Source: an uncultured Nitrospiraceae bacterium
GTDB taxonomy: Bacteria > Nitrospirota > Nitrospiria > Nitrospirales > Nitrospiraceae
Assembly: GCA_963706325.1 (NCBI GenBank)
Contig: CAVPLT010000004.1
Coordinates: forward strand, 1,072,031 to 1,136,030
Direction: 5' to 3'
DNA length: 64,000 nucleotides
Under the pieces are notes generated by a model that did not search any database, was not told the DNA's origin, and saw nothing but the letters and a program-made list of their open reading frames with translations. Below are positions 36,615-62,028 of the stretch, one piece after another. The position numbers and the translations under genes are program-made. Position 1 is the first letter of the stretch. Every line of letters starts with the position of its first letter.

Positions 36615-37945
36615 TCGGCATTTCTGCATATGCCGCCATAGCAGCAGGCTTGTTCGTCTCGCTCTGGAGGTATCCTGCAGTCGCACTCGCAGGTGTATTC
36701 TGCATGTTTGCGCTGGAGCAGTGGGGCCAAGCCACCACTGGTTTCTTCGCACAACACCACACCGCCACTAATTTCCTGATAGGTGGAATGCTTGTACTCG
36801 CTTTGGTCATTCAAGGGGTCAGAAAGGGATTTTTAATTTTTTCCGGCTATCCGGCAGTCGGTTGGCTCACGTTGGCCTTGTTTCTTTATGCCTTTGCTTC
36901 AACGCAATGGGCTCCTCGTCCAGATATCAGCCTAGACCTATGGCAGAGTCGGTGGCCCTATATCGTAACCATGCTGGTGTTGACCCCATTGCTTATCACA
37001 GAAACCCAAGATCTGCGGTCTGCCTATACAGGGTTATTCCTGATCGGAGGAACGCTGTCGATACTCCTGCTGTTCTTCGTCAAATGGGAGGCTCGACGAA
37101 TAGTACTTGACCATGGCCTGGGAAATCCTCTCGCAGTAGCTGCCGTAGCAGGTATGGTTGTCCTCACTTCCATTCTGGCCGATCCCTGGCCGCGTTCGAA
37201 ATGGTGGATTCCTTTCAAGTGGACGATTGCCATCCTGTGTCTAATGCTCGTCATAAAATCAGGTTCCCGCGGCCAGCTCCTAGGAGTACTTCTCGTTTCT
37301 GTGGCTTGCTGGCCCATAAGCCGTGGTCTGGCCAATGTCAAACAATTTGCAGTCCTGAGTATCGTGATCTTGCTCCTTGGGACAGCCACTACCTGGACCA
37401 TTCAGGAATTTTCTAGCCAACAGTTGGTTTATGGGGGACGCGCGAGGTGGAGTGAACAATCCGCGCAGGAGGATGTCTCAGGCCGTCTTAATAATGCACT
37501 ACTGCTTGTTCGGCTGGCCTACTCCTCCCCCGAAACAGTGCTCTTCGGCTTGGGGAATTCGGCATCGTATGATCCGCGCATCCTCGGGATCTACCCTCAC
37601 TTCGTGCCGTTGGAAGTGCTGGCTGAAGAGGGACTTATTGGGTTTGCCTTGTATGGGATAATCTTCTACTGTCTATTGTGCACCACCATTCGATGTTTCC
37701 GCATCGCTGCCACTGACCCGGCAGAACGACTCTTGCTGGGAGGACTCATAGGCCTGTGCCTATTCACCTTCATTCTTTCGCTCAAGCAGGGAAGTCTGCT
37801 GCTTAATTTAGAACCATTTATGTTGGCAATTATCCTCGGGCGGTACGAACGACTTCTGTCGAAGAGCCTTACGACTGAGGGTGCAATAGAAGAGGAGCGT
37901 GAAGATGAGGAGCTCTTGGCATTCATCAGGTATCCGGCTCTTTAA
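36611..37945 (+). CDS. Wzy polymerase / O-antigen ligase-like membrane protein
   Basis: Multi-TM; SGSRG, SGRL, LFGLG, YPHFVPLEVLAEEGLIG. Confidence 0.8.
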   Translation: MIGISAYAAIAAGLFVSLWRYPAVALAGVFCMFALEQWGQATTGFFAQHHTATNFLIGGMLVLALVIQGVRKGFLIFSGYPAVGWLTLALFLYAFASTQWAPRPDISLDLWQSRWPYIVTMLVLTPLLITETQDLRSAYTGLFLIGGTLSILLLFFVKWEARRIVLDHGLGNPLAVAAVAGMVVLTSILADPWPRSKWWIPFKWTIAILCLMLVIKSGSRGQLLGVLLVSVACWPISRGLANVKQFAVLSIVILLLGTATTWTIQEFSSQQLVYGGRARWSEQSAQEDVSGRLNNALLLVRLAYSSPETVLFGLGNSASYDPRILGIYPHFVPLEVLAEEGLIGFALYGIIFYCLLCTTIRCFRIAATDPAERLLLGGLIGLCLFTFILSLKQGSLLLNLEPFMLAIILGRYERLLSKSLTTEGAIEEEREDEELLAFIRYPAL

Positions 37946-38135
37946 GCCATCACCATGGACATATAAACTGCGCCTCACTCTGGACTGATAGGCTGAAAGC
38001 ATAAAATGAAAGCCCCGATGACATTGGGTTTACCCACATCCGATTCTTTCGATCTTTCGATTCTTTCGAAAATCGGTCGGCATATGAAATGACATTTGAT
38101 CCTCAGGGCTCATACGGCCAATTTTCGGGCATGAG

Positions 38136-39287
38136 ATGATGCTCTCGCGCCATTCAACCACACCAAGAGTTGCGGTGATTTACCATTTCTTTGCGCACTA
38201 CCGCTCCGCAATCATGCGAGAGCTGCTCGACTGTAAAGATATTGAATACTTCTTAGTCGGTGACCGATCAGACCCTGACAACTCGATTGAGCCATGGCAA
38301 CCACCGGAGGACCGACTATTGTTCGCCCCTTGCACAAAGATTACTTCTAGTCTGCTATGGCAGAAAGGGTTGGTTCGTTTGGCTCTGCGGCATGACATCG
38401 ACGTCATGATCTTTCTCGGCAATGCGAACTTCCTCAGCACTTGGGTCGCAGCCTTGTTGGCGCGGCTGAAGGGAAAGCGGGTCTTATTTTGGACGCATGG
38501 CTGGATGCGAAAGGAGCAGGGGTTTAAAGGCACAATCAGAAATCTCTTCTACCGCCTTGCCCACGGGCTTCTTCTCTACGGTCCCCGTGCAAGGCTGATC
38601 GGAGTCCAAAATGGGTTCCATGGGGACGGTCTCTACGTTGTCTACAATAGCTTGGACTTACAAACGCAATCAAAAATCAGGGCTCATGTGACTCCTGATC
38701 GTCTGAGACATATCCGAGAGAGGTGTTTTCCGAATTCAAACGCCCCCATCTTGATCTGTACCGGTAGACTTACCAAACCGAAAGGCTTGGCAATTCTGTT
38801 AGAAGCGATGTCTCTATTACAGGAGCAGGGGTTCAGAACCTGTTTACTATTGGTCGGTGAGGGGCCGGAACGCGAATCTTTAATACAGATGGCCAATGAC
38901 CTTCGTCTCACCGTGCATTTCTATGGTGCCTGTTACAACGAAGAGCTTCTCGCGGAACTGATCATGTCGGCCAACATAACCGTCTCGCCTGGTCAGGTCG
39001 GTCTCACCGCCATGCATAGTCTTGCCTACGGAACTCCGGTCATTACCCATGATGACCCTGCTAATCAAATGCCTGAGTGGGAAGCGATCCTTCCAGGAAA
39101 AACGGGAGACTTTTTCAGATGTGGTGATGTCCAGGATTTGGCTAAGACGATACGTAAATGGTGCCTGCATCCTTGGCCTGACGAAGATGTCCGCAGTCAA
39201 TGCATGGCCATTATTGAGCATCGGTACAATCCAAATTTTCAGCGGCATGTGATTAACCGTGCAGTGGCTGGATTGGTGGCAGAATAG
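38136..39287 (+). CDS. Glycosyltransferase family 4
   Basis: WTHG, GRLTKPKG, VGEGPER, GLTAMHSLAYGTPVIT. Confidence 0.88.
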   Translation: MMLSRHSTTPRVAVIYHFFAHYRSAIMRELLDCKDIEYFLVGDRSDPDNSIEPWQPPEDRLLFAPCTKITSSLLWQKGLVRLALRHDIDVMIFLGNANFLSTWVAALLARLKGKRVLFWTHGWMRKEQGFKGTIRNLFYRLAHGLLLYGPRARLIGVQNGFHGDGLYVVYNSLDLQTQSKIRAHVTPDRLRHIRERCFPNSNAPILICTGRLTKPKGLAILLEAMSLLQEQGFRTCLLLVGEGPERESLIQMANDLRLTVHFYGACYNEELLAELIMSANITVSPGQVGLTAMHSLAYGTPVITHDDPANQMPEWEAILPGKTGDFFRCGDVQDLAKTIRKWCLHPWPDEDVRSQCMAIIEHRYNPNFQRHVINRAVAGLVAE

Positions 39288-39339
39288 GGTCGCGTCCATG
39301 TGTGTCGACGATAGCCTATAAACTCGAGAGCGATGAGCC

Positions 39340-39909
39340 GTGCAATCCGTTAGTAATAAGTTGCGATCGGTGCCATGGAGCTATAAGTTTGTCCGCTGGA
39401 TTCTTATAACCTATCGTCGACGACGCTTTGGGCTTAAACGGGTACACGCTACCTTTTATATGGCGAGAGGCTGTTTGGTGAGCCGCGATTTGGTCGCACA
39501 CGAATATAGCTTTATCAATATGGGCTGTGTCCTTGGGCCAAAAGTCGAACTTGGTCGTTATGTCATGCTTGGACCTTACGTTTCGGTTGTGGGGAATGAC
39601 CATGTTACGTCAAAAGCGGGAGTGCCGATCATTTTTTCAGGACGCCCTCCCCAAAAGCAGACGTTCGTAGAGGACGATGCTTGGATTGGATTTGGAACAA
39701 TCATTGTGGCCGGTGTAAGAATCGGTCGAGGAGCGATTGTGGGGGCTGGTTCCGTTGTGACAAAGGATGTCCCTCCTTATGAAATTCATGCTGGGGTGCC
39801 GGCAAAAAAGATCGGTGAACGATTCGCGAATGAAACCCAACGTCTGAAACACGATGCCATGTTGGACGGACCTATAGTTGCTGGCCAATACTGTTCTTCA
39901 ATTCATTGA
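39340..39909 (+). CDS. Hexapeptide-repeat O-acetyltransferase
   Basis: VEDDAWIG...GVRIGRGAIVGAGSVVTKDVPPYEIHAGVPAK. GTG start. Confidence 0.88.
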   Translation: MQSVSNKLRSVPWSYKFVRWILITYRRRRFGLKRVHATFYMARGCLVSRDLVAHEYSFINMGCVLGPKVELGRYVMLGPYVSVVGNDHVTSKAGVPIIFSGRPPQKQTFVEDDAWIGFGTIIVAGVRIGRGAIVGAGSVVTKDVPPYEIHAGVPAKKIGERFANETQRLKHDAMLDGPIVAGQYCSSIH

Positions 39910-39971
39910 TCTACGAATATGTCAATCGAATAGGTCCATTTCAGACTAAAGCCTTGAGCCTCCGATAACCT

Positions 39972-40517
39972 ATGCATAAACTAAATTTTAACTCATCCCC
40001 CTCTCACTCTGTGAAGAATAAAGTGGGAAGGGTTTTATGGAGAACAGTCTGGCTGTTACTTTATCGTCCAAGTCCCAGATTTGCTCATGGATGGAGACGG
40101 TTCCTGTTGCGTCTGTTTAAAGCAAAAATCGGCAACGCAGCTCATCCTTATCCGTCAGCAATTATATGGGCCCCATGGAACCTTGAAATGGGACAGCATA
40201 GCTGCCTTGGGGATCATACTGATTGCTATTGTGTAGACAAGATTACAATAGGGCCTCATTCCACAATTAGCCAATACAGCTTTCTCTGCACGGCCAGCCA
40301 TGATTATGAACAATTGGGATTCCCTGTCATCACCGCACCTATCACAATTGGGGAACAATCCTGGATAGCTGCAGATGTGTTTGTGGGGCCTGGGGTCACT
40401 ATTGGAAATGGTGCTGTGATAGGAGCCAGATCAACGGTTTTTCAAAGTGTAGCCGACTGGACAGTTGTGGTGGGAAACCCGGCAAGGGAAATCAAAAAAA
40501 GAAGTTGCAGTGCATGA
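39972..40517 (+). CDS. WcaF-like acetyltransferase
   Basis: WRRFLLRLF, PWNLEMG, SQYSFLCTASHDY, GNPA. Confidence 0.88.
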   Translation: MHKLNFNSSPSHSVKNKVGRVLWRTVWLLLYRPSPRFAHGWRRFLLRLFKAKIGNAAHPYPSAIIWAPWNLEMGQHSCLGDHTDCYCVDKITIGPHSTISQYSFLCTASHDYEQLGFPVITAPITIGEQSWIAADVFVGPGVTIGNGAVIGARSTVFQSVADWTVVVGNPAREIKKRSCSA

Positions 40518-41596
40518 GCAATAATCATAACTCCGAGGTGGAGAATACGCTAATGAGAGAAAAACCCAAGCCTGTTGCGACTGTGGTTATCACCACTAGA
40601 AATCGCATGGAAATGCTGCAACCGGCCATTGTCTCGGCCCTATCACAGCAAGGTGAGATCGAAGTACTTGTCATGGACGATGCTTCCACAGATGGGAGCG
40701 TCGAGATGGTTAAGAGGACTTTCCCTACCGTTCGGATTGTCACCTCACCAAAACGCTGTGGTCTTATCGTTCAAAGAAATCGAGCAGCCAAACTGGCGCG
40801 TGCCCCTATTATTTTTTCTCTAGACGATGACGCAATCTTTACGTCTCGTCATGTTATTTCTCAAGCGCTACCATATTTCAAGGATGAAAGAGTCGGCGCA
40901 CTGGCTCTCCCGTTAATTAACATTATTGACGGCCTGAAGCGGGAGTTCTATGCAGGGAGACCAACACAAGAAGATGCCTTCTGGGTTATGCATTCATTCA
41001 CTGGTGCCGCTTATGCGGTCAGACGCGATATATTCTTAACACTGGGAGGATTTCAGGGACACCTTTTTCACTGGGGAGAAGAGCCCGAGTATTCTCAGCG
41101 AATGCTTAATGCTGGAAGAGTGGTCCGGTTGGCAATCACGGATCCTATCCATCATTTCCCGGCAGCGGAAGGGAGGCACAAGAGAGGCAAGAATGTGTGG
41201 CTCTATCGAAACATGATTTTAGCCTCATGGTATACCGCACCGCGATCCCTGTTATTCCCAATCCTCGCGGTTCAAACCGTTCGTTGCCTCGCAAGGGGTG
41301 CTAGCAACATTCGTCAGTTGCCCATTGCAATTGAAGGTCTAGTTCGCGGTTATGCCTCGTGTCTAGCTAGGGGGGCAAAGCGAACGCCGATTTCCTCTCA
41401 AACATTCAAGTTATTCGTTGAACTGAACAAGCGACGATTTGTGCCATACGAAGAAATCGCTTCCAGGCTGGCTCCGCTAGAATTTCTAGCAGGGGTCGGA
41501 CGAGAAAAATTACGAATCACCAGGAGCTGGCCGCCAAGACCTGGTGATCGGTCAGAGAGAACTGAATGTCGCCTTCGATGTTGCCGCTATCCGTGA
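40514..41596 (+). CDS. Glycosyltransferase family 2
   Basis: VVITTRNR, DDASTD, SLDDDA, WGEE. Start uncertain (40514 or 40553). Confidence 0.85.
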   Translation: MSNNHNSEVENTLMREKPKPVATVVITTRNRMEMLQPAIVSALSQQGEIEVLVMDDASTDGSVEMVKRTFPTVRIVTSPKRCGLIVQRNRAAKLARAPIIFSLDDDAIFTSRHVISQALPYFKDERVGALALPLINIIDGLKREFYAGRPTQEDAFWVMHSFTGAAYAVRRDIFLTLGGFQGHLFHWGEEPEYSQRMLNAGRVVRLAITDPIHHFPAAEGRHKRGKNVWLYRNMILASWYTAPRSLLFPILAVQTVRCLARGASNIRQLPIAIEGLVRGYASCLARGAKRTPISSQTFKLFVELNKRRFVPYEEIASRLAPLEFLAGVGREKLRITRSWPPRPGDRSERTECRLRCCRYP

Positions 41597-42456
41597 TAAT
41601 CCTGACCTTTAATGAAGAGAGTAACATTGGTGCTTGTTTGGAAAGCGTTATCCCATGGGCCCAGGAGGTATTGGTCGTAGATTCGGGGAGTACAGACCGT
41701 ACTTTGGACATTGTGGGATCTTATGGAGCGAGAGTCTTTAGCCACCCGTTCCAAAACTATTCACACCAAAGAAACTGGGCTCAGGAGAACTTACCGTTAT
41801 CTTATGAATGGGTATTTCATATCGATGCTGACGAACGAGTATCGCTCGAACTTGCCCAAGGCGTCCGCAAGTTCTTCAGTGACGCATCAAACGAACAGCA
41901 CGTTTCAGGGCTCATGGTTCGGCGCAAGATAATATTTTTCGGAAAACCCATCGTGCATGGCGGCCTTTATCCCACTTATCACTGCAGAATCTTTCGGAAA
42001 CAGCGTGGCCGTTGTGAAGACCGAGAGTACGACCAACACTTTCTAATTGATGGCAAAACCTGCACGATCGAGGCAGACTTATTGGAACTCACCGCCACCT
42101 CTCTCTTTTCATGGACTGCTAGGCATAACAAGTGGGCACAAATGGAGGCCAAGCAGCTGTTACTTGGAACTCGTGAGGGCCAAGCCGTTTCTGTTCAACC
42201 AAAACTTACTGGTTCGCCGATTGAACGACGAAGATGGTTACGGGCCCGTGTGTATGAAAGTTCTCCGCTGTTTTTACGGCCCTTATTGTACTTCTTCACA
42301 CGATACCTGTTTAGAGGGGGATTTCTGGATGGCACCCCAGGTCTGATTTATCACGTCTTGCAGGGCTTCTGGTTTCGGTTTTATGTGGACGCGTGTTGCT
42401 ACGAACTGCATCAACGCGAGAAGCCCTCGCTTACACGGTATTCCGAAAAGAAATAG
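41566..42456 (+). CDS. Glycosyltransferase family 2 (WaaE/beta-glucosyltransferase-like)
   Basis: LSVIILTFNEE, VDSGSTDRT, QRNWA, IDADE, GFLDG. Confidence 0.9.
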   Translation: MSPSMLPLSVIILTFNEESNIGACLESVIPWAQEVLVVDSGSTDRTLDIVGSYGARVFSHPFQNYSHQRNWAQENLPLSYEWVFHIDADERVSLELAQGVRKFFSDASNEQHVSGLMVRRKIIFFGKPIVHGGLYPTYHCRIFRKQRGRCEDREYDQHFLIDGKTCTIEADLLELTATSLFSWTARHNKWAQMEAKQLLLGTREGQAVSVQPKLTGSPIERRRWLRARVYESSPLFLRPLLYFFTRYLFRGGFLDGTPGLIYHVLQGFWFRFYVDACCYELHQREKPSLTRYSEKK

Positions 42457-42506
42457 CCTGCAGCTAGGATTGTTCATTCCTCCTGAGCACCACAACATCG
42501 TTACAA

Positions 42507-43724
42507 ATGAAATTATTCTTCGTCAATCGTTTCTTCTATCCGGACCATTCAGCCACCAGCCAGCTTTTAACGGACTTGGCATGTTGTTTGGCTCGATTAA
42601 ATATGGACGTTTGGGTGGTAACCGGTCGGCAGGCCTACGACAATCCTGATGCTATCTTGGAGGATGGGAACTTGGTGCAAGGTGTCCACATCATACGCCT
42701 GTGGTCCAGCCGCTTCGGACGCCAACGGTTATGGGGACGAGCGATCGACTATGGCACCTTTTATTTGAGCGCGCTATGGTGCTTGCTAAGAAGCGTCCAA
42801 GCCGGTGACGTCGTCGTTGCCAAGACGGACCCCCCTTTGATTTCAGTCATCGCCGACGTTGCCACCAGGTTGCGAGGCGCAATCCTGATCAATTGGATTG
42901 AAGACCTATTTCCCGAAGTTGCCTCGGCCTTGGCTCTGCAGGGAACCGGTTGGCTCGAGCGCCCGCTCCGTACCATTAGGAATAGATCGCTGCTGACAGC
43001 CCGACGAAATGTCGTCATTGGGGAGGGTATGGCAAAGAGGCTTCGAGGGGAGGGGATTCCATCTGACAGTATTAAGGTAATCCACAATTGGGCCGATGGA
43101 CTGGCCATTCAACCCATTGATGCCCAGAAAAACGAGCTAAGGCGCGAGTGGAATCTTGACGATAAATTCGTGGTGGGCTACTCAGGTAATTTTGGAAGGG
43201 CTCATGAGTTCCGCACGATCCTTTCAGCAGCGGAGATCCTTCGAGATCATACACGTATCATATTTCTCTTCATTGGAGCCGGTGCCCAATTGGCATCGAT
43301 GCGCCATGAAGTTGAAAGTAAACGATTGAGAAATGTCATATTCAAGCCCTATCAGCCACGGGATCAGCTTTCGATGAGTCTCAGCGTGCCTGACATTCAT
43401 GTGATTTCGCTTTTGCCCGCACTCGAAGGCTTGATCGTTCCAAGCAAATTTTATGGTATTGCAGCAGCAGGAAGGCCGATGCTCTATATCGGCGACAAGG
43501 AGGGAGAACTTCCACAGTTGATACGAAGCGGGCAATGTGGCTTCTCGGTGGAGGTGCATCAGGACAAGGAAGCAGCCGCTGTCATTAACAGGGTGGCTCG
43601 AGATACGGCCGCTTGCAGGCGATTAGGAGATCGGGCACGGATTCTATTCCACCAGCGATTCGAGAGATCTTATGCGGAGCGAGCATGGCAAAGGGTGATC
43701 GCAGAAGCAATACATCAGGCATGA
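42507..43724 (+). CDS. Glycosyltransferase family 4 (WcaI-like)
   Basis: NRFFYPD, TDPP, DLFPE, HNWAD, YSGNFG, VPSKFY. Confidence 0.9.
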   Translation: MKLFFVNRFFYPDHSATSQLLTDLACCLARLNMDVWVVTGRQAYDNPDAILEDGNLVQGVHIIRLWSSRFGRQRLWGRAIDYGTFYLSALWCLLRSVQAGDVVVAKTDPPLISVIADVATRLRGAILINWIEDLFPEVASALALQGTGWLERPLRTIRNRSLLTARRNVVIGEGMAKRLRGEGIPSDSIKVIHNWADGLAIQPIDAQKNELRREWNLDDKFVVGYSGNFGRAHEFRTILSAAEILRDHTRIIFLFIGAGAQLASMRHEVESKRLRNVIFKPYQPRDQLSMSLSVPDIHVISLLPALEGLIVPSKFYGIAAAGRPMLYIGDKEGELPQLIRSGQCGFSVEVHQDKEAAAVINRVARDTAACRRLGDRARILFHQRFERSYAERAWQRVIAEAIHQA

Positions 43725-43761
43725 AACTATTTCATTCGCTGCGTTTAAACGGAGTAATCAA

Positions 43762-44679
43762 ATGATGAAAAGCACTCGCACCATTGTGACGTTAGGTGTA
43801 GTGTCCGTGCTCGGGATTCTGGCAATGGCGATGTCGGACAGCACTATAACGACGCCCATCGCTCAGGCCAAAGCCGTGCCGGAGAAGAAACCGTTCATGG
43901 TGCTTGACGGTACGCTCTATACCGACAAACCGGATCTTTCTCAGCACGGAATCCAACCCATCACTATGGCTTATGTGAGCCAGTTCGGAAATGATTGGTA
44001 CAAGAATGCGTCACGTTTGCCTGAAAAGGCGGCTGTGCAAAAACTAGCCCGCGAAGCCCAAGAAAATACACGTCCTGTGGTGCTCGATATCGAACATTGG
44101 TCACTGAAGGGAAATTCCAGCCAAGTGCAGGATAGCCTATCAAAGTACATGACCGTCCTGCAGTGGTTCAAAGAGGCGGCTCCGGGTTTGACTGTCGGCT
44201 ACTATGGAGCTCCGCCCTTGCGCGACTACTGGAGGGCAATTAGTCCACCGACAAGCAAGGAGCGGAAATCGCTTTCAGAAGATAATGATCGGCTTCAACC
44301 TCTGGCAGAAGCGGTGGATATCCTATTTCCCCCACTCTACACCTTCTATACCGACCAAGGCGGATGGGTACGATATGCATATGGCCAGATAGCAGAAGCG
44401 CGACGCTGTGCAAATGGAAAGCCCGTCTATGTGTTTCTATGGCCTCAATACCACGACTCCAACCGCAAGCTCGCGGGATCGTATCTACCGGCTGATTACT
44501 GGCGGCTCGAATTGGAAACTGCGAAGCAATACGCCGATGGGATTGTTCTTTGGGGTGGGTGGGGAAGCAACAATCGGCCAGCCAAATGGGAGGACAATGC
44601 CGTCTGGTGGAAAGTGACAAAAGATTTCATGGCGACGGTCGTGTCATCCAATCATCCGGCCGATATAAAACCGAATTAG
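43762..44679 (+). CDS. Secreted TIM-barrel glycoside hydrolase-like protein (GH56 hyaluronidase-like motifs)
   Basis: N-terminal signal/anchor; VLDIEHW, VGYYG, NDRL...LFPPLY, GIVLWGG. Confidence 0.65.
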   Translation: MMKSTRTIVTLGVVSVLGILAMAMSDSTITTPIAQAKAVPEKKPFMVLDGTLYTDKPDLSQHGIQPITMAYVSQFGNDWYKNASRLPEKAAVQKLAREAQENTRPVVLDIEHWSLKGNSSQVQDSLSKYMTVLQWFKEAAPGLTVGYYGAPPLRDYWRAISPPTSKERKSLSEDNDRLQPLAEAVDILFPPLYTFYTDQGGWVRYAYGQIAEARRCANGKPVYVFLWPQYHDSNRKLAGSYLPADYWRLELETAKQYADGIVLWGGWGSNNRPAKWEDNAVWWKVTKDFMATVVSSNHPADIKPN

Positions 44680-44861
44680 CCGTTCTCTACCGTGACGTGC
44701 TCAAGCTGACGGAAGATCGCCTCATTCCGAGACATATGGGGTGAAAAACCAACTTGAGTTGTTGCTCAAGCAGATTTTACGACCCAACTTAATAAAGTAA
44801 AATTTGAAGTCACTATACCACTGGCAGCCCATTGAACAGCACACATATAGAGGCACCAAGC

Positions 44862-45656
44862 ATGAACATAATAGCAACAGACAAAAAACCCCTTACAGCT
44901 CAATATAACGAAAGATTTTACAACTCTCAGATGGACGGTTCTTATCGTAGTGCAAGTGAGTATGTAAAGTACCTATCACAGTTATACCAGCCAGAAAGCG
45001 TCATTGATTTCGGATGCGGAAGAGGCACTTGGTTAAAAGCCTTCAAAGACATAGGAGTTGAGCGACTAGTCGGTTTGGATGGGAAATGGAATAGTCAAGG
45101 TAGAATGGTAGAGCAATCAATAAAATTTGTTCCAGTTGATCTAAACGGGCCCGTTAACATATCCGAAAAATTCGACATAGCTATTTCGCTCGAAGTAGCA
45201 GAACACCTTAAAGACTCCTCTGCCGATAGCTTCGTAAATAACATGATTGCCTCTTCGGATGTGGTTATGTTCGGCGCTGCCTACCCTTCGCAAGGCGGCA
45301 CTGACCATATGAATGAACAGCCGCCTACCTATTGGGCAAATATTTTCTTGAAATATGGGTATGTACCGTATGACATTTTTAGACCAGTATTTTGGGGGAG
45401 TCCAACAGTTAGCTTCTGGTATCAACAAAACACTTTTTTATACGTTAGATCCAGTTCTAGAGTTAACGAAACACTGAAAAACATGGGTCATAAACCAATA
45501 CTAAACACTGCATTTATGAATTGTGTCCACCCAACCCTGTACAATTTGAAACTATCGTCCTTATCTGTAAAATCAATGGTTATTCATTCAATCAAAAAGG
45601 CTATTCCGAAAAGACTATATCCCGTAGCACTCAGAATCAAAGATTTCCTCACCTAA
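44862..45656 (+). CDS. Class I SAM-dependent methyltransferase (low GC)
   Basis: VIDFGCGRGTW, SLEVAEHL, QGGTDHMNEQ. A spot-counted line (45481-45540) is 40% GC. Confidence 0.88.
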   Translation: MNIIATDKKPLTAQYNERFYNSQMDGSYRSASEYVKYLSQLYQPESVIDFGCGRGTWLKAFKDIGVERLVGLDGKWNSQGRMVEQSIKFVPVDLNGPVNISEKFDIAISLEVAEHLKDSSADSFVNNMIASSDVVMFGAAYPSQGGTDHMNEQPPTYWANIFLKYGYVPYDIFRPVFWGSPTVSFWYQQNTFLYVRSSSRVNETLKNMGHKPILNTAFMNCVHPTLYNLKLSSLSVKSMVIHSIKKAIPKRLYPVALRIKDFLT

Positions 45657-45856
45657 GCCAAATATTTTTGCCTTTCATAACTATAAAAGGGGAGAAATGT
45701 TGGAAATGCTTCTTCCGGCTATGGCGTGGCAGCCCGATAGACTTGCCCTTTCCCCCGTCCGGTTCACCACCACAAGGAAGTTGACTCCTGTGGCATAGGC
45801 TCCCGTAACTCGAAACAGTCAAAAGGAGAATTTTCTGGCACACTAACCGAAGAGTG

Positions 45857-46118
45857 AGACGTCTGAGGCCGAGGCCGCCGGCACCCACGGGCTAACCGTG
45901 GCCGAGGTGGAGGACTGGCGGGAGAAATTTCTGTTGGGGCGGAGCACTCAAGAAAGGCAGCCGACGTTCCAGACCTTTGAGGAGGCGCGGCAAATCATTC
46001 GAGACTGGATCTAGTGGTACAACCACGCGCGCCCGCATCAGGCCTTGGGCTATCGAAGCCTGGTTTAATACCGAGCCCAACCATCAATCCAGGTGGCTTG
46101 ATTTCGGGGAGCACTACA
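45857..46118 (+). mobile_element. Internally deleted IS3-family remnant with right end
   Basis: OrfA fragment (HGLTVAEVEDWREKFLLG) joined to the OrfB C-terminus (FQTFEEARQIIRDWI*WYNHARPHQALGYRS), ending ...GGGGAGCACTACA (IS3-type CA terminus). Confidence 0.7.
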
Positions 46119-46767
46119 CGATTCTGAAAGAGGCCGATGCGGGTCGTCCCATCAATGAAATCTGGCGACACTACGGCATCGACTCGGCAACGTACTACAA
46201 ATGGAAGGCGAAGTGCGGCGGCCTCGATGCGTCGGATGTGAAGCGGTTGAAGGACCTGTAGCACGAGAACGGTCGGCTCAAACGGATGTATTCCGACCTC
46301 TCGTTGGAGAACCCGGCGCGAAAGGATGTCCTCGCAAAAAAGCTCTCAGGGTTGTTGAACGGCGGGAGGTCGTGACGCATCTGGTCACGGTGCACGGCCT
46401 TCCGGTTCAGCGGGGCTGCCGCGTGATGGGATAGAACCGGGCGACATACGATCGCTCCCTCGTGGATTGGGCCGGACGCGATGCCCCGGTGATCGCGGCG
46501 CTGACCACGCTCGTGGCCGCAAAGAGCGCTGGGGCTTTTGGAAGTGTTGTGATCGGCTCCAACTCGATGGCCATCCCTGGAATCAGAAACGACGATGGCG
46601 GGTGGACTGGCACCTCCGGTTCCACTTGCCGCGACGGACGAAGGAGCGGCTGCCGCCTCGTCGTGCTGCCCCATGCCAATGCGGTCTGGGCCGTCGATTT
46701 TATGAGCGACACGCTCGATGGCGGCCGTCGGGTCCGGACGTTATACGTGCTGGATGAAGGTGTCCGC
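46119..46767 (+). pseudogene. Decayed IS3-family (IS407-group-like) transposase orfA/orfB, truncated at the junction
   Basis: ILKEADAGRPINEIWRHYGIDSATYYKWKAK...KDL*HEN; OrfB RWGFWK...NAVWAVDFMSDTLDGGRRVRTLYVLDEGVR with stops and frameshifts. Confidence 0.8.
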
Positions 46768-47329
46768 AGTCCCGACAGCCTGACGCACGCGCTGTACGAG
46801 GCGGCGACGGCGGCGCTCGGCGGGGCGGGACACGAGGTCGTCGGCCTCGACCTGTACGCCGAGGGGCTGGCGCCGGCCATGTCCGCGGCGGAGCGGCGCG
46901 CGCTACCACACGGACCAGCCCATCCTCGATCCGCAGGTCGCCCGGCACGCCGAGCTGGTGCGCACGACCGAGGCGCTGGTGTTCGTGTACCCCACGTGGT
47001 GGGCGGCGCCGCCCGCCATCCTGAAGGGGTGGCTCGAGCGGGTGCTCGTGCCGGGCGTGGCCTTCCACCTCGATCCGAGGACGAGGCAAGGTGGCCGCGG
47101 CCTGCGGCACGTGCGCCGGCTCGTCGGCATCACGACCTACGGGTCGTCGCGCCGGTACGTGCGGTGCTCGGCGATCCGGCCGGCGCACGCTTCATGCGGG
47201 CGCTGCGGATGCTGTGCGCCCGTCGGTGCCGGCGCACGTGGCTCGCCCTGTACGGGATGGACACCGCCACCGTCGGCGAGCCGGCGCGGTTCCTCGACCG
47301 CGTCGCCGCAACGGATGGCCCGGCTGTGA
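46768..47329 (+). CDS. Flavodoxin-fold NAD(P)H:quinone oxidoreductase, 5'-truncated and frameshifted
   Basis: SPDSLTHAL...DLYAEG, LVFVYPTWWAAPPAILKGWLERV, ITTYGS. The N-terminal HAHP strand is missing. Confidence 0.75.
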
Positions 47330-47930
47330 GGGCGGAGGTGCTCGTGCACGCCCATCCGGTGGCCACCAGCTTCAGCGCCGCGCTGCGGGACTGCGCCGTG
47401 GCGGCGCTCGCGGCGCGCGGTCGACGACGTCGACGTGCTCGACCTGTACGCCGAGGGCTTCGACCCCTACCTCGACGCCGACGAGTGGGTCGCCGTGGAC
47501 CGGATACGCCCGGCGCGGGCGAGGACCGTCCGGACGACTCGCCGCCTACATCGCCCGCCTGCGCCGCGCCGACCACCTCGTGTTCGTCTACCCGACGTGG
47601 TTCGGGGGCCCGCCGGCGATGTTCAAGGGCTGGCTCGACCGCGTGTGGGTGGAAGGCGTGGCCTTCGAGAAGGTGCCCGGCAGCAACCGGCCCCGCGCCC
47701 GCCTGCAGCACGTCCGTTCGATCACGGTGATCACGACGTACGGCTCGTCGCGGCGGGTCAACATCGCTCGAGGGCGAGCCGGGCAAGCGCCTCGTCGCCG
47801 GTGGCTGCGGGTGCTGTGCCACCCGCTGGCCCGATCGCGCTGGCTCGCGCTCTACGACATGGACCGCACCACCGACGCCGGCGCGGCGCCGTTCCTCGAC
47901 CGCGTCGAGCGGGCATGGCCGCCTCGAGCG
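47326..47930 (+). CDS. Second flavodoxin-fold NAD(P)H:quinone oxidoreductase (frameshifted)
   Basis: VLVHAHPVATSF, LDLYAEGFDP, LVFVYPTWFGGPPAMFKGWLDRV, TTYGS. End approximate. Confidence 0.75.
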
Positions 47931-47932
47931 GA

Positions 47933-49200
47933 TCACGGGTCCACGCCGGTCCTCGCCCACGATGCGCGAGCCGCGGTCGTAGGTGACGTAGTTCCACGCC
48001 CAGTTGACCAGCACGTTGGCCCGGTTGCGGAAGCCGATCAGGTACAGCAGGTGCAGGCCGAGCCACGCCAGCCAGCCGAGACGCCGCAGAGGCGGATGCC
48101 GCCGGGCAGCTCGGCCACGGCGTCGTGGCGCCCGATCGTGGCCATCGAGCCCTTGTCGAAGTAGCGGAACGGCGACGTCGGCCGGCCGTCGAGCCGGGCG
48201 TGGATCATGCGGCCGGCGTGGCGGCCGCCCTGGATGGCCACCTGGGCCACGCCCGGCAGGGCCGCCGTCGGCCGTCGCCGGCCGCCGGCGGCGATGTCGC
48301 CGACGGCGAACACCTCGGGATGGTCGGGCACCGACAGGTCGGGGTTCACCACGAGGCGCCCGCCCCGCGCCGGCGGCGACGCCGCAGCGAACGCGCCAGC
48401 GGGCTGGCCTCGACGCCGGCCGTCCACACCAACGTGCCGGCGGGGATGCGGGTGCCGTCGCTCAGGTGCACGGCGTCGGCCTCCACCTTGTCGACGCCGA
48501 CGCCGAGCACGCACCTCGACGCCCCGCTTGGTAGCGACCGGTAGGGCCCGGTCGGGACAGCGTGGCGCGAACGTGCCGAGCAGGCGGTCGGCCGTCTCGA
48601 CGAGCACGATGCGGGCCCGGCGCACGTCGAGGTTCGGGTAGTCCTTGCGAACACCTTCGCGAACAGCTCGGCCAGCCCGCCGGCCAGCTCCACCCCGGTC
48701 GGGCCACCGCCGGCAGATCACGACGGTGAGCACGCCGTCGTCGACGGCTCGCCGGGTCGGTGGCCGCCCGCTCGAACGTGCGCAGGAGTGCGATCGCAGG
48801 GCGACGGCGTCGGCGAGGCGTCTTCAGCTCGAAGGCGTGCTCGCCCACGCCCGGCACGCCGTAGTCGGCGCCGACACCGCACCGGCGGCGATGACGAGGT
48901 GGTCGTAGGCGAGGTCGCCCTCGGTCGAGCACGACTCGCCGGCCGTCGAGATCGATGCCGGTGACCCGCTCCATGCGGAAGTCGACGTTGCGCTGGCGAT
49001 GGAAGATGCCGCGCGCCGGGAAGGCGACGTCGTCGGCGTCGAGACCGGCGGTGGCCACCTGGTACAGCAGCGGCTGGAAGGTGTGGAAGTTGTTGGCGTC
49101 GACGAGGGTGACGTCGACCGGTGCGTCGCGGAGGGCCTTGACCGCCGCCAGCCCGCCGAAGCCGGCGCCGATGACGACGACGCGTGGCGGCCTCGTACAC
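47933..49200 (-). CDS. ndh: Type II NADH dehydrogenase (frameshifted)
   Basis: VVVIGAGFGGL, FQPLLYQVATAGL, ELAGGLAE, VFAVGD, PGVAQVAIQGG, FRYFDKGSMATIGR. Confidence 0.85.
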
Positions 49201-49210
49201 GGCCGCGCCC

Positions 49211-50133
49211 TCACGCCGTCGCGCAGCCGATGCGCGAGCGCGCCACGCACCGGCCGCCACCGCGGCAGTTGTGCTCGGCCAGCGCGAGGTTGGCGGGCAC
49301 GCTGTCGCCGGCCGTGACGGCGGCGATGCGCTCCAGCACGTAGGGCGTGACGGCCGGGCCGGTGATGCTCGGCGTCGGCGGCGTCGGCCAGCGCGGCGGC
49401 GAGGACGTGCGTCGATCGGCGGCGGGTCGAGCTCGGCGTCCTGGCGGGATGGGCACGGCCAGCAGCACGCCGGCGTCGGTCGCGGGCCCGGTTGGCGAGC
49501 ACGGCCGCCACCTCCGCGGCCGACTCGACGCGGTGCGGCACGGGCAGCCCGGACGAGCGGGTGTAGAAGGCGGGGAACCAGTCGTGGCGCCAGCCGAGCA
49601 CCGGGACGCCGATGCGTCTCCAGCTCCTCGAGCGTGCGGGGGAGGTCGAGGAACGCCTTGGCGCCGGCGCACACGGTGACGAGCGGGTGGTGGGCGATGG
49701 CGCCGAGGTCGGCGGACACGTCACCGGTCACCTCGGCGCCGCGGTGCACGCCGCCGATGCCACCGGTGGCGAACACCGAGATGCCGGCGGCGTCGGCCAG
49801 GGCCAGCGCCGCCGACACCGTCGTGGCGCCGTACGGCCACGCCGGGCGACGGCGACGGCCAGGTCGCGCTCGGCCGCCTTGCGCGCCGGTCCGCAGATGC
49901 GGTCGTGCTCGCTCGGCGTCGACGCCCACCCGGGCGACGCCGTCGAGCACGGCCGTGAGGGCGGGCACGGCGCCGGCCGCCCGCACCGCGGCGACGCAGC
50001 GCTCGAGCGCTTCGGCGTTGGCCGGCTCGGGCAGGCCGAGGTTGGAGAAGATCGTCGACTCGAGCGCCACGACCGCCGCGCCGTCGGCCAGGGCGTCGGC
50101 CACCTCGGGGTGCACGAGTGGGGTGAGCGGCAC
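49211..50133 (-). CDS. psuG: Pseudouridine-5'-phosphate glycosidase (frameshifted)
   Basis: VVALESTI, ATTVSA, FATGGIGGVHRGA, SADL, CAGAKAFLDL, GPAVTPYVL. Confidence 0.85.
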
Positions 50134-50215
50134 GCCGGCATCCTGCCAGGCCGGTCGGCGGCGGCCGAAGGGCCGGGCCGAGCGGCCGAAGGGCGCGATC
50201 AGGCGATCGTGCCCG

Positions 50216-50947
50216 TCAGGCGACCGTGCCCTCGAGCAGCGCCGGCTGCTGCGAGGTCGGCACGCCACCGGCGGCCTCGTCGGTCACGACCAGCGCCGTG
50301 AGGCCGCCGTCGACCGTGAACGGCTCGACCGCCGGCCGGTGGCCGAGCACGCCGAGGGAGATGACCTGGTCATCGATGACGCCCCACAGCTGGTACGTGC
50401 GGTCGGGGCCGAGGTCGGCCAGCTCGCGCAGGGAGATCACCCCCAGGCCGCCGGGCTCGACGACGGCCACGGCCCGCTGGGTCCCGTCCTCGCCCTTCAG
50501 CACCACGCGAGTGGCGTCCGGATCGGCCATCGCGTGGTCGAAGACCTGGGCCATGCTGTCGAGCTCGCTGCGCGACGAGCGAGGGCTCGCGCGACGGCGA
50601 CCACGGTGATGACGACGGCCGCGGCAGCCGCGGCGACCCGCCGCGCCGACGACCGCCGCCGTGGGCCAGCGCCGCCGGCGGGCCGGCAGCACCTTGGCCA
50701 GCTCGGGGCCGGGCGCCGGCGCTCGCTCCTCGATCGAGCCGGCGATCCGGTCCCACAGCCCCTCGGGGGCGGGGGCGCCGCTGAAGGCCAGCAGCGTGGC
50801 CACCTCGCGGTGCTGTCGACCTCGGCCCGGGCCCGCGGGTTGTCGTCGAGGTACTCCTCGACCCTCGGCGCTCGTCGTCGTCGACGGCGTCGAGGGCGTA
50901 GGCGCCGAGCAGCTCCTCGATCTCGTCGGGGCGTCAGCGTCGCTCAC
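50216..50947 (-). CDS. RskA-like anti-sigma factor (frameshifted)
   Basis: APEGLWDRI, a TM segment, [23 protein letters not shown] overlap with the sigma gene. Confidence 0.75.
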
Positions 50948-51525
50948 GCCTCTACCCACCGTGATGCCGACGGCGGCCAGCTCACCGCGCAGCCGCTTCA
51001 GCCCGGCGCGGATGCGGCTCTTGACCGTGCCCTCGGGCTCGCCGAGCCGCGCCGCCACCTCGCGGTAGGTGTGGCCGCCGAAGTAGGCCAGCTCGATCGC
51101 CACCGCGCTCGCGCGGCGGGCAGCGTCCATCGACTGCGCGGACCTGCTCGGCCGTGGCCAGGTCCCACACCTCGTGCTCGAGGTCGTAGCCGCGCCTCGG
51201 CCGTGCGCCGGGCGTCGCGCTCCTCCGCGGGCCGGCGGGCGCCCTCCGAGCGGAGCAGGTCGACGGCGCGACCGTGGGTCTGGGCGAGGAGGTAGCTGCG
51301 CAGCGTGCCCCGGGCGGGGTCGAACCGCTCCGGGTCGTTCCACAGCCGCAGGAACACCTCCTGCACCACCTCCTCGGCCAGGGCCTGGTCGGTCAGCAGG
51401 CGCCGGGCCAGCCCGAAGACGGCGCCGGCGTGGCGGCGGTAGGCCTCGGCCAGCGCCTCCTGGCGGTAGCGCCCGATGGCGACCACGAGCGCCGCATCGG
51501 AGACGTCGCGAACGCTCGCGCACAC
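50944..51525 (-). CDS. ECF sigma factor (SigK-like, frameshifted)
   Basis: [32 protein letters not shown]...[15 protein letters not shown]. Start approximate. Confidence 0.85.
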
Positions 51526-51607
51526 CGGTCGTACGACGCGACGTCCGGATGGTCCGCGTCCGCCGGATCACGCCCGGCCCAGGACGGCAGTCACGCCCGG
51601 CCGACGG

Positions 51608-52767
51608 TCACGCTGCACCACCTCGACGTGCGGGGTCTGCGGGAACAGGTCGACGAGCGTCGACTGGACGTGGCGGTAGCCGTGGCCGTCCAAGCAGCGC
51701 GGCGTCGCGGGCCAGCGAGGCCGGATCGCAGCTGACGAGCACGAGGCGGGCCGCGCCGGTCGCGGCCAGCGCGTCGGCCGCGGCCGCGCCGAGGCCGGCC
51801 GCGGCGGGTCGGCGATCACGAGCGCCGGCCGGCTCCGGGCGCCAGCGGGCCACGTCGACGCGGACGACCGTGGCGTCCCGGTCCGCCAGGTTGCCGGGCG
51901 TCGCGGCACGAGGAGGCCGAGCTCTCGACCGCGACGACCCGCCCCGTCACGGGCAGGCACGCCGGCGAACAGCCCGACGCCGGCGTAGGCGTCGACGACC
52001 GTCCCGCCGACCGACGTCGTCGCCGGCCGCCTGCGCCACGGCGGCGACGAGCGCCTCGGCGCCGTCGGGGCGGGTCTGGAAGAACGAGCGGGCCGAGACG
52101 CGCAACGGCCGGCCGGCGACCTCCTCGGTCAGCCACGCGTCCGGTCGCGACGCACGTCGGCGGGAGGTCGGCGGCGGCCGCGGCGTCCTCGGGGACGACC
52201 AGGACCGAGCCGCTCGCCGGTCGCGACGCCGCAGCGCAGCGTCACCTCGTCGGCACCCGGGAAGCGGGCCTCGGCGATGAGCTCGGCCAAGGCCGGGTGG
52301 GCGACGAGGCAGTCGTCGACCGGGACGACGTCGTGCGAGCGCAGCCCGGAAGCCGGCCCGACCGTCGGTGACCGCCAGCCGCACGGTGGTGCGGAAGCCC
52401 CGGTGGGCAGCTCCGGGCCGTCCACGACGACCGCTCCGGCCACGCCGCCGGTGCGGGTCAGCGCCTCCTCGACGATCCGCCGCTTCAGCGCCCGCTGCTC
52501 CGCGGGCTCGATGTGCTGCCACCCGCAGCCGCCGCAGCCCGCGGCGACGTACGGGCACGGCGGCTCGACCCGACCGGGCGACGCGTCGACCACCCGCTCG
52601 ACGACGGCTCGGGCGTAGTCCCGCTCCTCGACCATCCGGGCCACGACCAGCTCGCCCGGCAGCGCGCCGCGGACGAACACCACCCGGCCCGACGCCTCCC
52701 GGGCGATGGCGTCGCCGCCGGCCGCCATCGCCGTGGGCCGCAGCTCGATCAGCTCGGGCCCGGTCAT
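51608..52767 (-). CDS. TRAM-domain 23S rRNA m5U methyltransferase (RlmD/TrmA family, frameshifted)
   Basis: VFVRGALPGE, PPCPY...CGGCGWQH, SFFQ, LVSCDPASLARD, DLFPQTPHVEVV. Confidence 0.85.
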
Positions 52768-52804: not shown

Positions 52805-53514
52805 GTGGCTGATCGGGCCGCTCCCCGCATCCAGATCGCTCCCGTCGGTCCTCCCGGCCGACTTCGCCCGCCTCGGCGAGGAGGTCGCCGCCCTCGAGGC
52901 CGCCGGCGTCGATCGCATCCAGTGGGACGTGATGGACGGCCAGTTCGTCCCCAACATCACGTTCGGCCCCGACGTCATCGCGGCGGCCCGCCGCCACACC
53001 TCCCTGCCGTTCGAGGCCCACCTCATGATCCTGCACGCCGGAGCTGCTGGCCGCGGAGTTCGTGGAGGCCGGCTGCGAGCGGCTGATCGTCCACGCCGAG
53101 TCGGTCGACCCACCTCCACCGCACGCCTGGACCTCGTCCGCTCGCTCGGCGCGACGCCGGCGTGGCCATCGCCCCGGCCACCCCGGCCATCGCCGTCGCG
53201 CTACGTGCTCGACCTGGTCGACATGGTGCTGGTCATGACGGTGAACCCCGGCTTCGGCGGCCAGGACTACCTGGCCACCATGGAGCCGAAGATCGCCGAG
53301 GTCCGGGGCATGATCGCAGGCGTCGGGCTTCGACGTCGACGTCGAGGTCGACGGCGGCATCAGCGCCAAGACGGTGGCCGGCGGCGGCGGCGGCCGGGGC
53401 CAACGTGCTGGTGGCGGGCAGCGCGCTGTTCCACCATCCCGACGGCCTCGGGCCACGCCGTGGCCGAGCTCCGCGACGCTGGCCGAGGCGGCCTTCCCCT
53501 GGCTGGACGCCTGA
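52805..53514 (+). CDS. rpe: Ribulose-phosphate 3-epimerase (frameshifted)
   Basis: PSVLPADFARL, DVMDGQFVPNITFG, EAHLMI, MTVNPGFGGQ, VAGSALF. Confidence 0.9.
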
Positions 53515-53750
53515 CGGCTCCCCACCGCCGCGCGCTGCCCGCCGCCGGCGCTGCCGCCGGCCGAGGCGCGCCGGCCGACCGGGCCGCCGGCCGACCAGGC
53601 CGCCCGACCGGCACCCGCCGGACCGGGTCGATCCGCGACACCCTCCGAGGCAGGCACGAATGTGCCGAGGAAGCGGGGGCGCTCCGTGACAACCTCGGCC
53701 TGAGCGGCGGGCCGGCGCTGGGTGACGCACCCCCTGCGTACCATCGCCCG

Positions 53751-56700
53751 ATGGCGTTCGACCTGGTGCGCACGACGTACGGGCCCGCCGCGCTCGACGC
53801 GCTGGCGGCCGCCGTGGCGCGCGCCAAGGGGGACGAGCCCCTCCGGCCGGTCACCGTGGTCGTCCCGTCCAACTACGCCGGCGTGGCCGCTCGCCGGGCG
53901 CTGGCCCGCCGCCACGGCGTGATCGGCGTGGGGTTCGTGACCCTGTACCGGCTGGCCGAGCTGCTCGCCGGGCCGACGCTGGCACGGTCCGGCCGGGTGC
54001 CCGTCTCCTCGTCCGGTCGTGGCGACGGCGTTCCGGGCCGCCCTGGCGCGAGGACCCGGGGCTGTTCGGGCCCGTCGCGCGACCAGCCCGTCGACCGTGG
54101 AGGCGCTGCGGCGGGTCCACCGCGAGCTGCGGGACCTGGACGACCTGCAGCGCCGTCGCCTCGGCCCAGAGCGACGCCCGGGCCGCGGCGGTGGTGGCGA
54201 TCGACGAGCGGGTCACCGAGCGGCTCGCAGACCCGCTGGCACGACGAGACCGACCTGATGGTGACCGCGGCCGCGCTCGTCCGGGGTGGCGACGCCGTGG
54301 TCGACGTCGGCCCGCTCGTCGTCCACCTGCCGCAGCAGATCTCGAGCTCGGCGGCGCGGCTGCTCCAGGCCGTGGCCGCGCACGCGCCGGTCACGGTGAT
54401 CGCCGGGCTGACCGGGCGGGCCGACGCACCCGTGGAGCGTCTCCTCGGGCGGCTCGACCTGGCCGGGGAGCCGCCCGCTCCGCCCACGCCGGCCGGCCTC
54501 AGCCCCGAACCGTTCGTCGAGCTGACGGTCGCCGCGGACGAGGACGACGAGGTCCGCACCGCTCTTCGCCGCGTCGTCGAGGCGGCCGAGGCCGGCGTCG
54601 CCCTGGAGCGCATCGCCATCGTCCACGCGCCACGGGCTCCGTACGGCCGGCTGCTCTCCGAGCACCTGACCGCGGCCCGGCTGCCCTGGAACGGGATCAC
54701 CGCGTCGTCGGTGACGGAGCGCGTGGCCGGCCGCACGCTGCTCGGTCTGCTCGATCTGGACGCCACGGCGCTCCGCCGGCGGGACGTGTTCGCGCTGCTG
54801 GCCTCGGTGCCCCCGTCGCGTCGCCGGCCGGTGGCGGCGCTGGGAGCGGCAGGCCCGGCGGGCCCGGCGTGGTGAACGGCCGGCAGCCAGTGGGACGAGC
54901 GGCTGGCGGCGAGAGCGGCGGATCAGCGTCGCCAAGCGGACGCCGGTGGCGACGCGGAGGCCTGGCGGTACGAGGAGGCCGAGCGGGCCGACGAGCTGCG
55001 TGCCTTCGTCGCGGACCTGGCCGAGCGGCTCGAGCCGCCGACGCAGCCGACGTGGGCCGCGCACGCCCGGTGGGCCGGCCGCCTGCTGGAGCTCGTCATC
55101 GGCGGGCCCGTGCAGCAGGCGCGGTGGAGCCCCGAGGAGCGAGCGCGCCGTCGAGCGGGTCGAGCGGGTGCTCGACCGCCTGGCCCGCCTCGACGGTGTG
55201 GCCGACGACGTCGAGGGCCACGGTGTCGATCGGTCCGTGTTCCGGGCCGCGCTCGACGCCGAGCTGGCCGACGGCCCGGCCACCGTCGGACGCCTCGGCG
55301 AGGGGATCTTCGTCGGCCCGATCCCGCTCGCGGTGGGGATCGACGCCGACCTGGTCATCGTCCTCGGCCTGGTCGAGGGCGGCCTGCCCGGCGGGCTGGG
55401 CGACGACCCGCTGCTCTCCGACCGCACCCGCCGCACGCTCGACGGCGCGCTCACCACCGCGGCCGAGCGCCGCGAGGGCCTCCACCACCAGCTCCTGGCC
55501 GTCGCCGGCGCCGCCCAGCGGTACCGTCGTGGCCAGCCGTGCCGCTCGCCGACCTGCGCACCGGGAGCACCCGCTACGCGCTCGCGCTGGCTGGGCGGGT
55601 TGGAGCGGGCGGCCCCGGCCCGCACCGTCCGCCACACGTCGTTCCACGACGGCCTCGCGCGACGGCCTGCCTCCCGCCAGCGAGCAGGAGGCCGGCCTGA
55701 CCGACCTGCAGCGGACGCGCTCCAGCGGGCACGCGCTCGATGTCGCACCCACTGTCCCGCGGCGACCAGGCCCTCCATCGGGCGCTTGACGCTGATGGAA
55801 GCCCGGGCCAGCGACCAGCTGACCGCGTTCGACGGGAACCTGGCCTCCCTCGCTGCCGCGGGCGTCGACCTCGCACCGCGCCAGCCGGTCGCCCCGACCG
55901 CGCTCGAGGCCTGGGCCCGCTGCCCGTTCAGCTACTTCGTCCGGCACGTGCTCGGCGTCCGGGAGCGTCGATGCGCTGCAGGAGGAGCTGTCCCTCCGCC
56001 CGGCCGACCGCGGCGTCCTCGTGCACGCCGTGCTGGAGTCCGTGGTCGGCGAGCTGATCCGCTCGGGCGACGTGCCGGAGCCGGACCAGCCGTGGTCGGT
56101 GCCGGCCCTCGGCCGGCTGGCGGCCGAGCTCGACGCTCGATGCGAGGCGACCGAGTCGGAGGGCGAGGTCGGCCCGGCCCTGCACTGGCAGCTCGAGCAG
56201 CGGCGGCTCCGGCGGCGGCTGGACGGCTTCGTCGAGCTCGACCTCGCCGGCACGCGCGGAGCACGGGGTGCGCCCGGCGGCGACCGAGCTCCCGTTCGGC
56301 ACGGACCGATCCTTCGCCGTCGCCCTGCCGGACGGCCGGGCCTGGCCCTGCACGGCACGATCGACCGCGTCGACGCCGGGCCACATCGGTTGGCCGTCAT
56401 CGACTACAAGACCGGCCAGGCCCGGTCCAGCCAGACGAGACCCGTTCGTCGGCGGCGACCTCCGTCTGCAGCTCCCCATCTACGCCCTCGCCGACCGCGA
56501 CCTCCTCGGGCGGCCGGACGACGACGTGGTGGCCGAGTACTGGCACCTCCACGACCAGCACGACCGGCGCAAGCGCCTGCCCGTCGACGTCGACCCGCCG
56601 ACCCTGGCGCCGCCTGTCCGAGGTCCTCGCCGCCATCGTCGACGGCATCGCCGCCGGGCTGTTCGTGCCCCACCCGGACGAGCCCGACCCCTGGCGGCGC

Positions 56701-56867
56701 GCCCGCTGCGCCTACTGCGATCCCGACGGCGCCGACACCGCGACGCTGTGGGGGCAGTGGCAGCACAAGCGCCGGGATCCCGTGCTCGACGGCTACCGGC
56801 GGCTGGTCGATGACGTGGACGACGACGACGGCCGGCGAGCCGGAGCGACGACGGAGCCGCGCCATGA
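53751..56867 (+). CDS. AddB-like subunit: inactive helicase fold + PD-(D/E)XK nuclease (frameshifted)
   Basis: PVTVVVPSN, APTALEAWARCPFSYF, HGTIDRVD...VIDYKTG, LQLPIYA, CAYC. ATGA overlap with the next gene. Confidence 0.75.
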
Positions 56868-61994: not shown

Positions 61995-62028
61995 GCGGCC
62001 GGACGATACTCGCGGGGCTGATCCCGCC

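Follow-up and report, generated by a model that had tools for sequence, protein, structure and literature searches.

The window analysed here, a stretch of 64,000 nucleotides from a Nitrospira assembly, corresponds to positions 1,072,031-1,136,030 of contig C4; because that contig is 1,136,030 bp long, the last base of the window is also the contig end. The assembly comprises 8 contigs and 4.24 Mb, its contigs have 54–57% GC, and its quality score in the collection is 96.07% complete and 2.08% contaminated. Contig sizes and the pattern of errors suggest a long-read origin. The features of the window are as follows.

1..45,656, + strand: native Nitrospira DNA with glycosyltransferases, flagellar and chemotaxis genes, and a polysaccharide cluster with a methyltransferase gene last; reading frames intact (MotA identity, synteny, frameshift count, protein families)
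30,484..32,822, + strand: branch point, a stretch also found at C6:2164-4502 (98.1% identity, 44 substitutions, no gaps)
45,850..46,118, + strand: first decayed IS remnant, with an internal deletion and stop codons; on the right it runs directly into the IS3 remnant (matches in genus relatives; translation)
46,119..46,767, + strand: decayed IS3-family remnant, cut shortly past the WAVDF motif of the catalytic core (copies in G007 and G018; HTH_Tnp_1)
46,462..47,730, + strand: spurious 422-aa open reading frame, not a fusion protein; pieces of IS3 orfB and of both flavodoxin genes, separated by off-frame stretches (no Pfam family)
46,764..46,768, no strand: junction, with at most 1–2 unassigned bases and no spacer (codon comparison with two IS3 copies and four flavodoxin genes; repeat scan)
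46,768..47,329, + strand: Flavodoxin_2 gene 1 of Acidimicrobiia, first 10 codons missing, 3 frameshifts (Pfam, blastn, codon alignment)
47,326..47,930, + strand: flavodoxin-fold gene 2, paired in tandem with its paralogue as in G031-G034; frameshifted, with an approximate end (Pfam, homology)
47,919..52,760, - strand: NADH dehydrogenase II-like, Indigoidine_A (psuG-like), anti-sigma RskA, ECF sigma factor and TRAM/TrmA-like methyltransferase genes, all frameshifted (Pfam)
52,839..59,970, + strand: rpe, PD-(D/E)XK nuclease and UvrD-like helicase genes, frameshifted (Pfam)
61,211..64,000, - strand: trmD (cut by the contig end), rplS, DUF2469, yraN and enoyl-CoA hydratase genes, frameshifted except DUF2469 (Pfam)

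Nitrospira DNA and two decayed insertion sequences

The left side of the window belongs to the host. MotA (24,540-25,307) shares 91% identity with a protein labelled Nitrospira sp.; the remaining taxon-named matches of left-side proteins are to Nitrospira, Nitrospiraceae or Nitrospirae. All three genus relatives searched are collinear with it, mostly at 70–80% identity, G007 over 1-37,300 and both G009 and G018 over 1,300-34,000 or more. Frameshift-aware alignment of G007 proteins reveals a single apparent frameshift in 35,098 nt and 33 genes; the stops in three rows of that alignment arise where the alignments begin upstream of open reading frames that are themselves intact.

The polysaccharide cluster has two further features. 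A secreted-looking protein of 305 residues (43,762-44,679) has a weak match to Glyco_hydro_56 (hyaluronidase), and two stretches related to it lie in tandem in G007. The methyltransferase gene that closes the cluster (44,862-45,656) is low in GC, with a GC3 of 0.39, and its best metagenome relative is 62% identical; these properties are consistent with a real acquired gene.

Two insertion-sequence remnants follow. The first has its stronger matches in genus relatives, at 77–87%, and the translated peptide suggests to which family it may belong. The second, over 46,119-46,766, corresponds to positions 115-780 of a 1,209-bp element and is 76–78% identical over 648 bp to the copies in G007 and G018. 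G007 holds four matching copies, with the intact element measuring 1,209 bp. The remnant shares the orfA/orfB layout of this host-genus element. Unlike the intact G007 copies, it has lost the two inverted repeats together with the later portion of its catalytic core, and it carries stop codons, missense changes, and deletions of 1 bp and 17 bp. Its left end has been replaced by the right end of the first remnant. The best matches to the inverted repeats in the window, 17/30 for IRL and 19/30 for IRR, both lie far from the junction, and neither repeat is present. The remnant spans orfB residues 15-210 of a 346-residue stop-to-stop frame and thus has neither the terminal repeats nor the complete DDE core of an active IS3, given the positions that we take the DDE residues to occupy within orfB. 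As it stands it cannot have mobilised adjoining DNA. Its missing 3' half was not found at any other contig end; the search gave only a 76.5% fragment, at C4:343,655.

Assignment of the IS3 to the actinobacterial DNA was considered and rejected, since the remnant matches copies in the Nitrospira genus and a contig of public run X1 joins it to the upstream remnant. Some match to the 7.5-kb query was found in 14 of 18 genus genomes, and the flavodoxin part had no sizeable match among the 30 relatives searched.

The junction and the Acidimicrobiia tail

Composition changes abruptly within the window, as it does in chimeric contigs, in both GC content and tetranucleotide usage. The sequence-only reading had cited spot counts of 60%, 40% and 75% GC at 18601-18660, 45481-45540 and 47401-47460, and recounting gives exactly 0.60, 0.40 and 0.75. 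Per-kilobase GC is 45–61% throughout to 46,000, 64% in the junction kilobase and 70–79% after it; the final two 10-kb bins of C4 have 76% and 74%. All 18 one-kilobase windows of C4 above 68% GC lie at its 3' end, and elsewhere in the genome only the first kilobase of C6 exceeds that value. The tetranucleotide profiles that the sequence-only reading had proposed as a check give the same picture: the last eight 2-kb windows of C4 lie at distances of 0.46–0.60 from the host mean, as compared with a mean of 0.150 (sd 0.020, maximum 0.344) for 1,920 core windows. GC3 is 0.92–0.98 in four pieces of the tail and 0.66–0.70 in the three host genes motA, cheA and gmd.

Composition is a poor guide to the exact position of the join. 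A GC-only change point falls at 46,359 and a Markov change point at 46,711; the GC-rich IS3 blurs both, and they were set aside in favour of homology. IS3 homology to the Nitrospira-genus copies stops at 46,766, position 780 of the element. Acidimicrobiia homology begins at 46,774 by blastn, and codon alignment identifies AGT at 46,768 as flavodoxin codon 11. At the join the IS3 copies read GGC GTG CGG GAA GGC and the window reads GGT GTC CGC AGT CCC GAC AGC; four Acidimicrobiia flavodoxin genes carry H-P-x-x-x-S from codon 9, which places AGT at codon 11. The junction that had been set at about 46,767 is thus located directly at 46,767/46,768. With at most 1–2 bases left unassigned, neither a spacer nor an adapter would fit. 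The repeat scan found no repeat shared across or flanking the junction, and microhomology is limited to about 4 nt or less.

The in-frame passage from the IS3 (YVLDEGVR) into the 5'-truncated flavodoxin gene (SPDSLTHAL) is present as described earlier, and it is a one-in-three coincidence. The 422-aa open reading frame was correctly called an artefact: it has no Pfam match and strings together segments of three genes, some read in frame and some out of frame. The sequence-only reading had also pointed to the lack of an IS end and of a target duplication. Both are indeed absent, but this carries little weight alone, because the IS3 was already decayed and had lost its left end too. The window contains one junction, and not the two host junctions with IS ends, att sites or target duplication that would mark an island or composite transposon.

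The tail extends for 17.2 kb to the contig end, starting mid-gene and ending mid-gene. Pfam searches with 24 submitted ORFs identified Flavodoxin_2 twice, Pyr_redox_2, Indigoidine_A, RskA_C, sigma-70, TRAM, Ribul_P_3_epim, PDDEXK_1, UvrD, ECH_1, UPF0102, DUF2469, L19 and tRNA_m1G_MT, bearing out the earlier naming of trmD, rplS, DUF2469, yraN and rpe. No mobility gene appeared among the matches of the submitted tail ORFs, a subset of the ORFs called; beside the tail there is only the decayed IS3. For DUF2469, most of the best relatives among 80 retained loci belong to Acidimicrobiales, Ilumatobacteraceae or unclassified Actinomycetota, with identities of no more than 81%, and all five actinobacterial genomes of this kind that were searched match the tail. 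(Unfiltered tblastn with GC-rich ORFs returned low-complexity noise.) Classification of the two sides, another of the proposed checks, therefore yields different phyla, Nitrospira on the left and Acidimicrobiia on the right.

Gene order is that of Acidimicrobiales chromosomes. G033 is collinear with the tail in four blocks at 69–80% identity (46,774-50,150, 52,823-53,499, 53,778-60,290 and 61,212-63,999); the sigma-rskA-trmA block is missing from these and adjoins the flavodoxin genes in G032. Each of the four Acidimicrobiia genomes examined likewise has the tandem Flavodoxin_2 pair (46,768-47,930 in the window) close to its trmA/rpe region. As in chimeric contigs, genes expected in single copy are redundant: rplS, trmD, yraN and rpe occur both in the tail and on host contigs, where rpsP-trmD-rplS-yraN lie at C7:767.9-771.0 kb and rpe at C1:776.5 kb. 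The host copy of RplS is 52% identical to the G033 protein, the tail copy 74–85%.

The tail is also rich in errors, as had been claimed. Frameshift-aware alignment gives 54 frameshifts in 8,343 nt, or about 6.5 per kb, affecting 12 of 13 genes, with no in-frame stops; first-pass densities of 6.8 and 7.3 per kb had taken in mis-called reference ORFs. The frameshift densities of the two sides of the window differ about 200-fold. The same method applied between reference genomes gives 0 frameshifts in 4,980 nt and 1 in 3,737 nt. Counts are equal against four different genomes for flavodoxin gene 1 (3), ECH (5) and trmD (7), and for ndh, rskA and trmA the supporting references come from one genome (some of the references being duplicates of a single genome). 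Two of the reference genomes, G033 (rpe) and G032 (flavodoxin genes), have frameshifts of their own and are imperfect controls. Gap counts from blastn were rejected as a measure of error, the controls giving 10–21 per kb and the tail 24–28. Tail proteins retain normal identity to their orthologues (rplS 84%, psuG 81%, rpe 79%). Dense indels without substitution-type decay continue up to the contig end, the pattern of an unpolished read tail. Indels without stops, normal orthologue identity and native GC3 together suggest raw-read error rather than the decay of pseudogenes.

Continuation of the locus, public sequence and other contig ends

The expected native continuation of the left side lies elsewhere in the assembly. 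Past 32,822, the end of the stretch shared with C6, the two contigs carry different polysaccharide clusters, and in all three relatives the locus continues into DNA that is found here on C6, from 18,141 in G007, 18,161 in G018 and 14,513 in G009. The shared 2.3-kb stretch suggests that two Nitrospira haplotypes occur together, with their surface-polysaccharide loci swapped, and were binned into one genome. The cluster on C4 would then be a dead-end branch on which coverage tapers off. Another pair of contig ends, C4:1-4454 and C5:347,471-351,906, overlaps at 90.5% and may be a further strain branch or an unpolished end.

Contigs assembled from public runs X1, X2 and X5, which belong to two studies, agree with the left side in 17 of the 17 pieces listed, at 0–2 differences and without gaps, although any of the public runs compared could be the source sample itself. 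Over 45,852-46,410 the X1 and X2 contigs match without differences (pieces 45,852-46,316 and 46,103-46,410), and cover of the remnant reaches 46,410. The decay of the IS3 up to 46,410 is real, since these short-read contigs reproduce it. Among the pieces listed for 4 of the 24 listed runs, at a depth of only 2–5, no piece, joint or loose end falls at 46,767, which tells neither for nor against the join. Run X5 has depth in 12 of 12 bins to 46,004 and none in 16 of 18 later bins; its cover fades already before the junction, and a gap of this sort carries no weight. The 15 right-side pieces listed are about 87–95% alike; because they may derive from other Acidimicrobiia, they do not serve as a measure of read error. 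An exact 26-nt scan of metagenome contigs for the same-strain junction gave no matches, and a scan of metagenomes with the methyltransferase gave 25 loci, the best at 62% identity, with no same-strain contig across 46,767.

Other ends of this assembly also look foreign. The 3' end of C7 (L144:5400-12000) holds yidC, a gene for a GTPase, and argB, whose product shares 94% identity with a protein labelled Bradyrhizobium sp.; over its last 12 kb this contig matches the three relatives only in a short argB stretch, and its tail has long open frames. Two IS110 transposases lie upstream of the Bradyrhizobium-like DNA, and the foreign tail may extend tens of kilobases further. C6:1-2163 has 62–74% GC in most 200-bp bins ahead of an abrupt switch to Nitrospira sequence. 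First in it comes a frameshifted alpha/beta-hydrolase gene of about 72% GC and next a helicase/MTES_1575 fragment, and both look foreign. C1:1-1102, at about 64% GC, precedes a 2.6-kb, 96.6% overlap with the 5' end of C7; the nearest Atlas clusters of its ORF are mostly Pseudomonadota, which is a lead only. Both C6:1-2163 and C1:1-1102 lie outside the overlaps with other contigs. The assembly probably has further foreign contig ends.

Origin of the join

There is hardly any room for doubt that the tail is a data artefact of some kind. The sequence-only reading had favoured a misjoin or chimeric long read over horizontal gene transfer, and the different phyla, the error profiles, the duplicates of host genes and the expected native continuation on C6 all support that choice. 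The most probable source of the tail, with a good margin of confidence, is a chimeric long read that extended a thinly covered, dead-end strain branch. Two Nitrospira strain variants would share the chromosome to about 32,822 and then diverge into the different polysaccharide clusters. Synteny shows that the assembler carried the C6 variant into the conserved downstream genes, leaving the C4 variant as the dead end. The chimeric molecule would consist of Nitrospira DNA broken in the old IS3 remnant and an Acidimicrobiia fragment of at least 17.2 kb broken in a flavodoxin gene, both captured in one read. With no other reads available for correction, the tail may have kept its raw-read indels, hence some 6.5 frameshifts per kb.

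It is possible, though considerably less likely, that the assembler erred without any chimeric molecule, the graph walk or the consensus step leaving the Nitrospira dead end for Acidimicrobiia reads of low coverage; the tail would be an artefact all the same. One study (10.1101/2025.04.22.649783) describes contigs from long-read metagenome assemblers that are chimeric across phyla, and the C7 tail of the present assembly looks cleaner than a single read. At the C4 junction, however, the two sides have at most about 4 nt in common, and an overlap would have had nothing to use, while the length of the tail and its evenly spread errors seem to fit one read. We infer a chimeric read rather than an assembler jump at this join because shared sequence is lacking and the tail is read-like in length and errors. 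The long open frames of the C7 tail fit an assembler misjoin better than a single read, and more than one artefact mechanism may therefore be at work in the assembly.

A genuine recent transfer of the Acidimicrobiia segment into a Nitrospira subpopulation, through illegitimate recombination or IS activity and followed by decay or poor polishing, is very improbable. The junction does fall within an IS remnant, where a polysaccharide locus that varies between strains comes to its end, but this IS3 is long dead and lacks both ends, and the segment carries ordinary housekeeping genes, none of its Pfam matches being to a mobility gene. Dense indels without stops, normal orthologue identity and unchanged GC3 are unlike pseudogene decay. 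No second junction returns to Nitrospira, the relatives searched hold no sizeable counterpart of the flavodoxin part, and different foreign-looking DNA occurs at other contig ends. A real transfer would need the dead IS, the housekeeping content, the lack of a return junction and the unrelated foreign DNA at other ends to coincide. In a more specific form, which is fainter still, a soil Nitrospira subpopulation would very recently have acquired at least 17 kb of Acidimicrobiia chromosome, trmD and a gene for a ribosomal protein included, at its variable polysaccharide locus through end joining without homology, and the frameshifts would be due to poor polishing of a rare haplotype.

Artefacts of this kind are already known. 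Chimeric contigs from long-read metagenomes include phylum-crossing joins, recognised by a sudden shift in GC, gene-level taxonomy and unexpected single-copy genes, and some trace a minor subpopulation that only a few reads, or one, support (10.1101/2025.04.22.649783). The join on C4 is of the same cross-phylum type and bears the same signs in GC, taxonomy and single-copy genes. It differs from the contigs of that study in that those came from PacBio HiFi data and were tested by read clipping, whereas the tail here is rich in indels and is judged from sequence. Ligation-derived chimeric nanopore reads, in which unrelated DNA is joined in one read, are described for microbial standards in PMC13141652 and PMC5600009, together with the false structural variants and gene fusions to which they lead. 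The account in PMC13141652 stresses inverted-repeat chimeras and raw-signal features; the join described here is known from its letters alone.

The tail is almost certainly an artefact of an already known kind and not a real biological feature. It bears on quality control, in that an assembly scored as 2.08% contaminated still ends one contig in DNA of another phylum that duplicates rplS, trmD, yraN and rpe. Positions 46,768-64,000 should be masked, and findings near the contig ends of this genome are suspect. Cross-phylum tails of this sort can give rise to spurious reports of horizontal transfer, fused genes and novel proteins.
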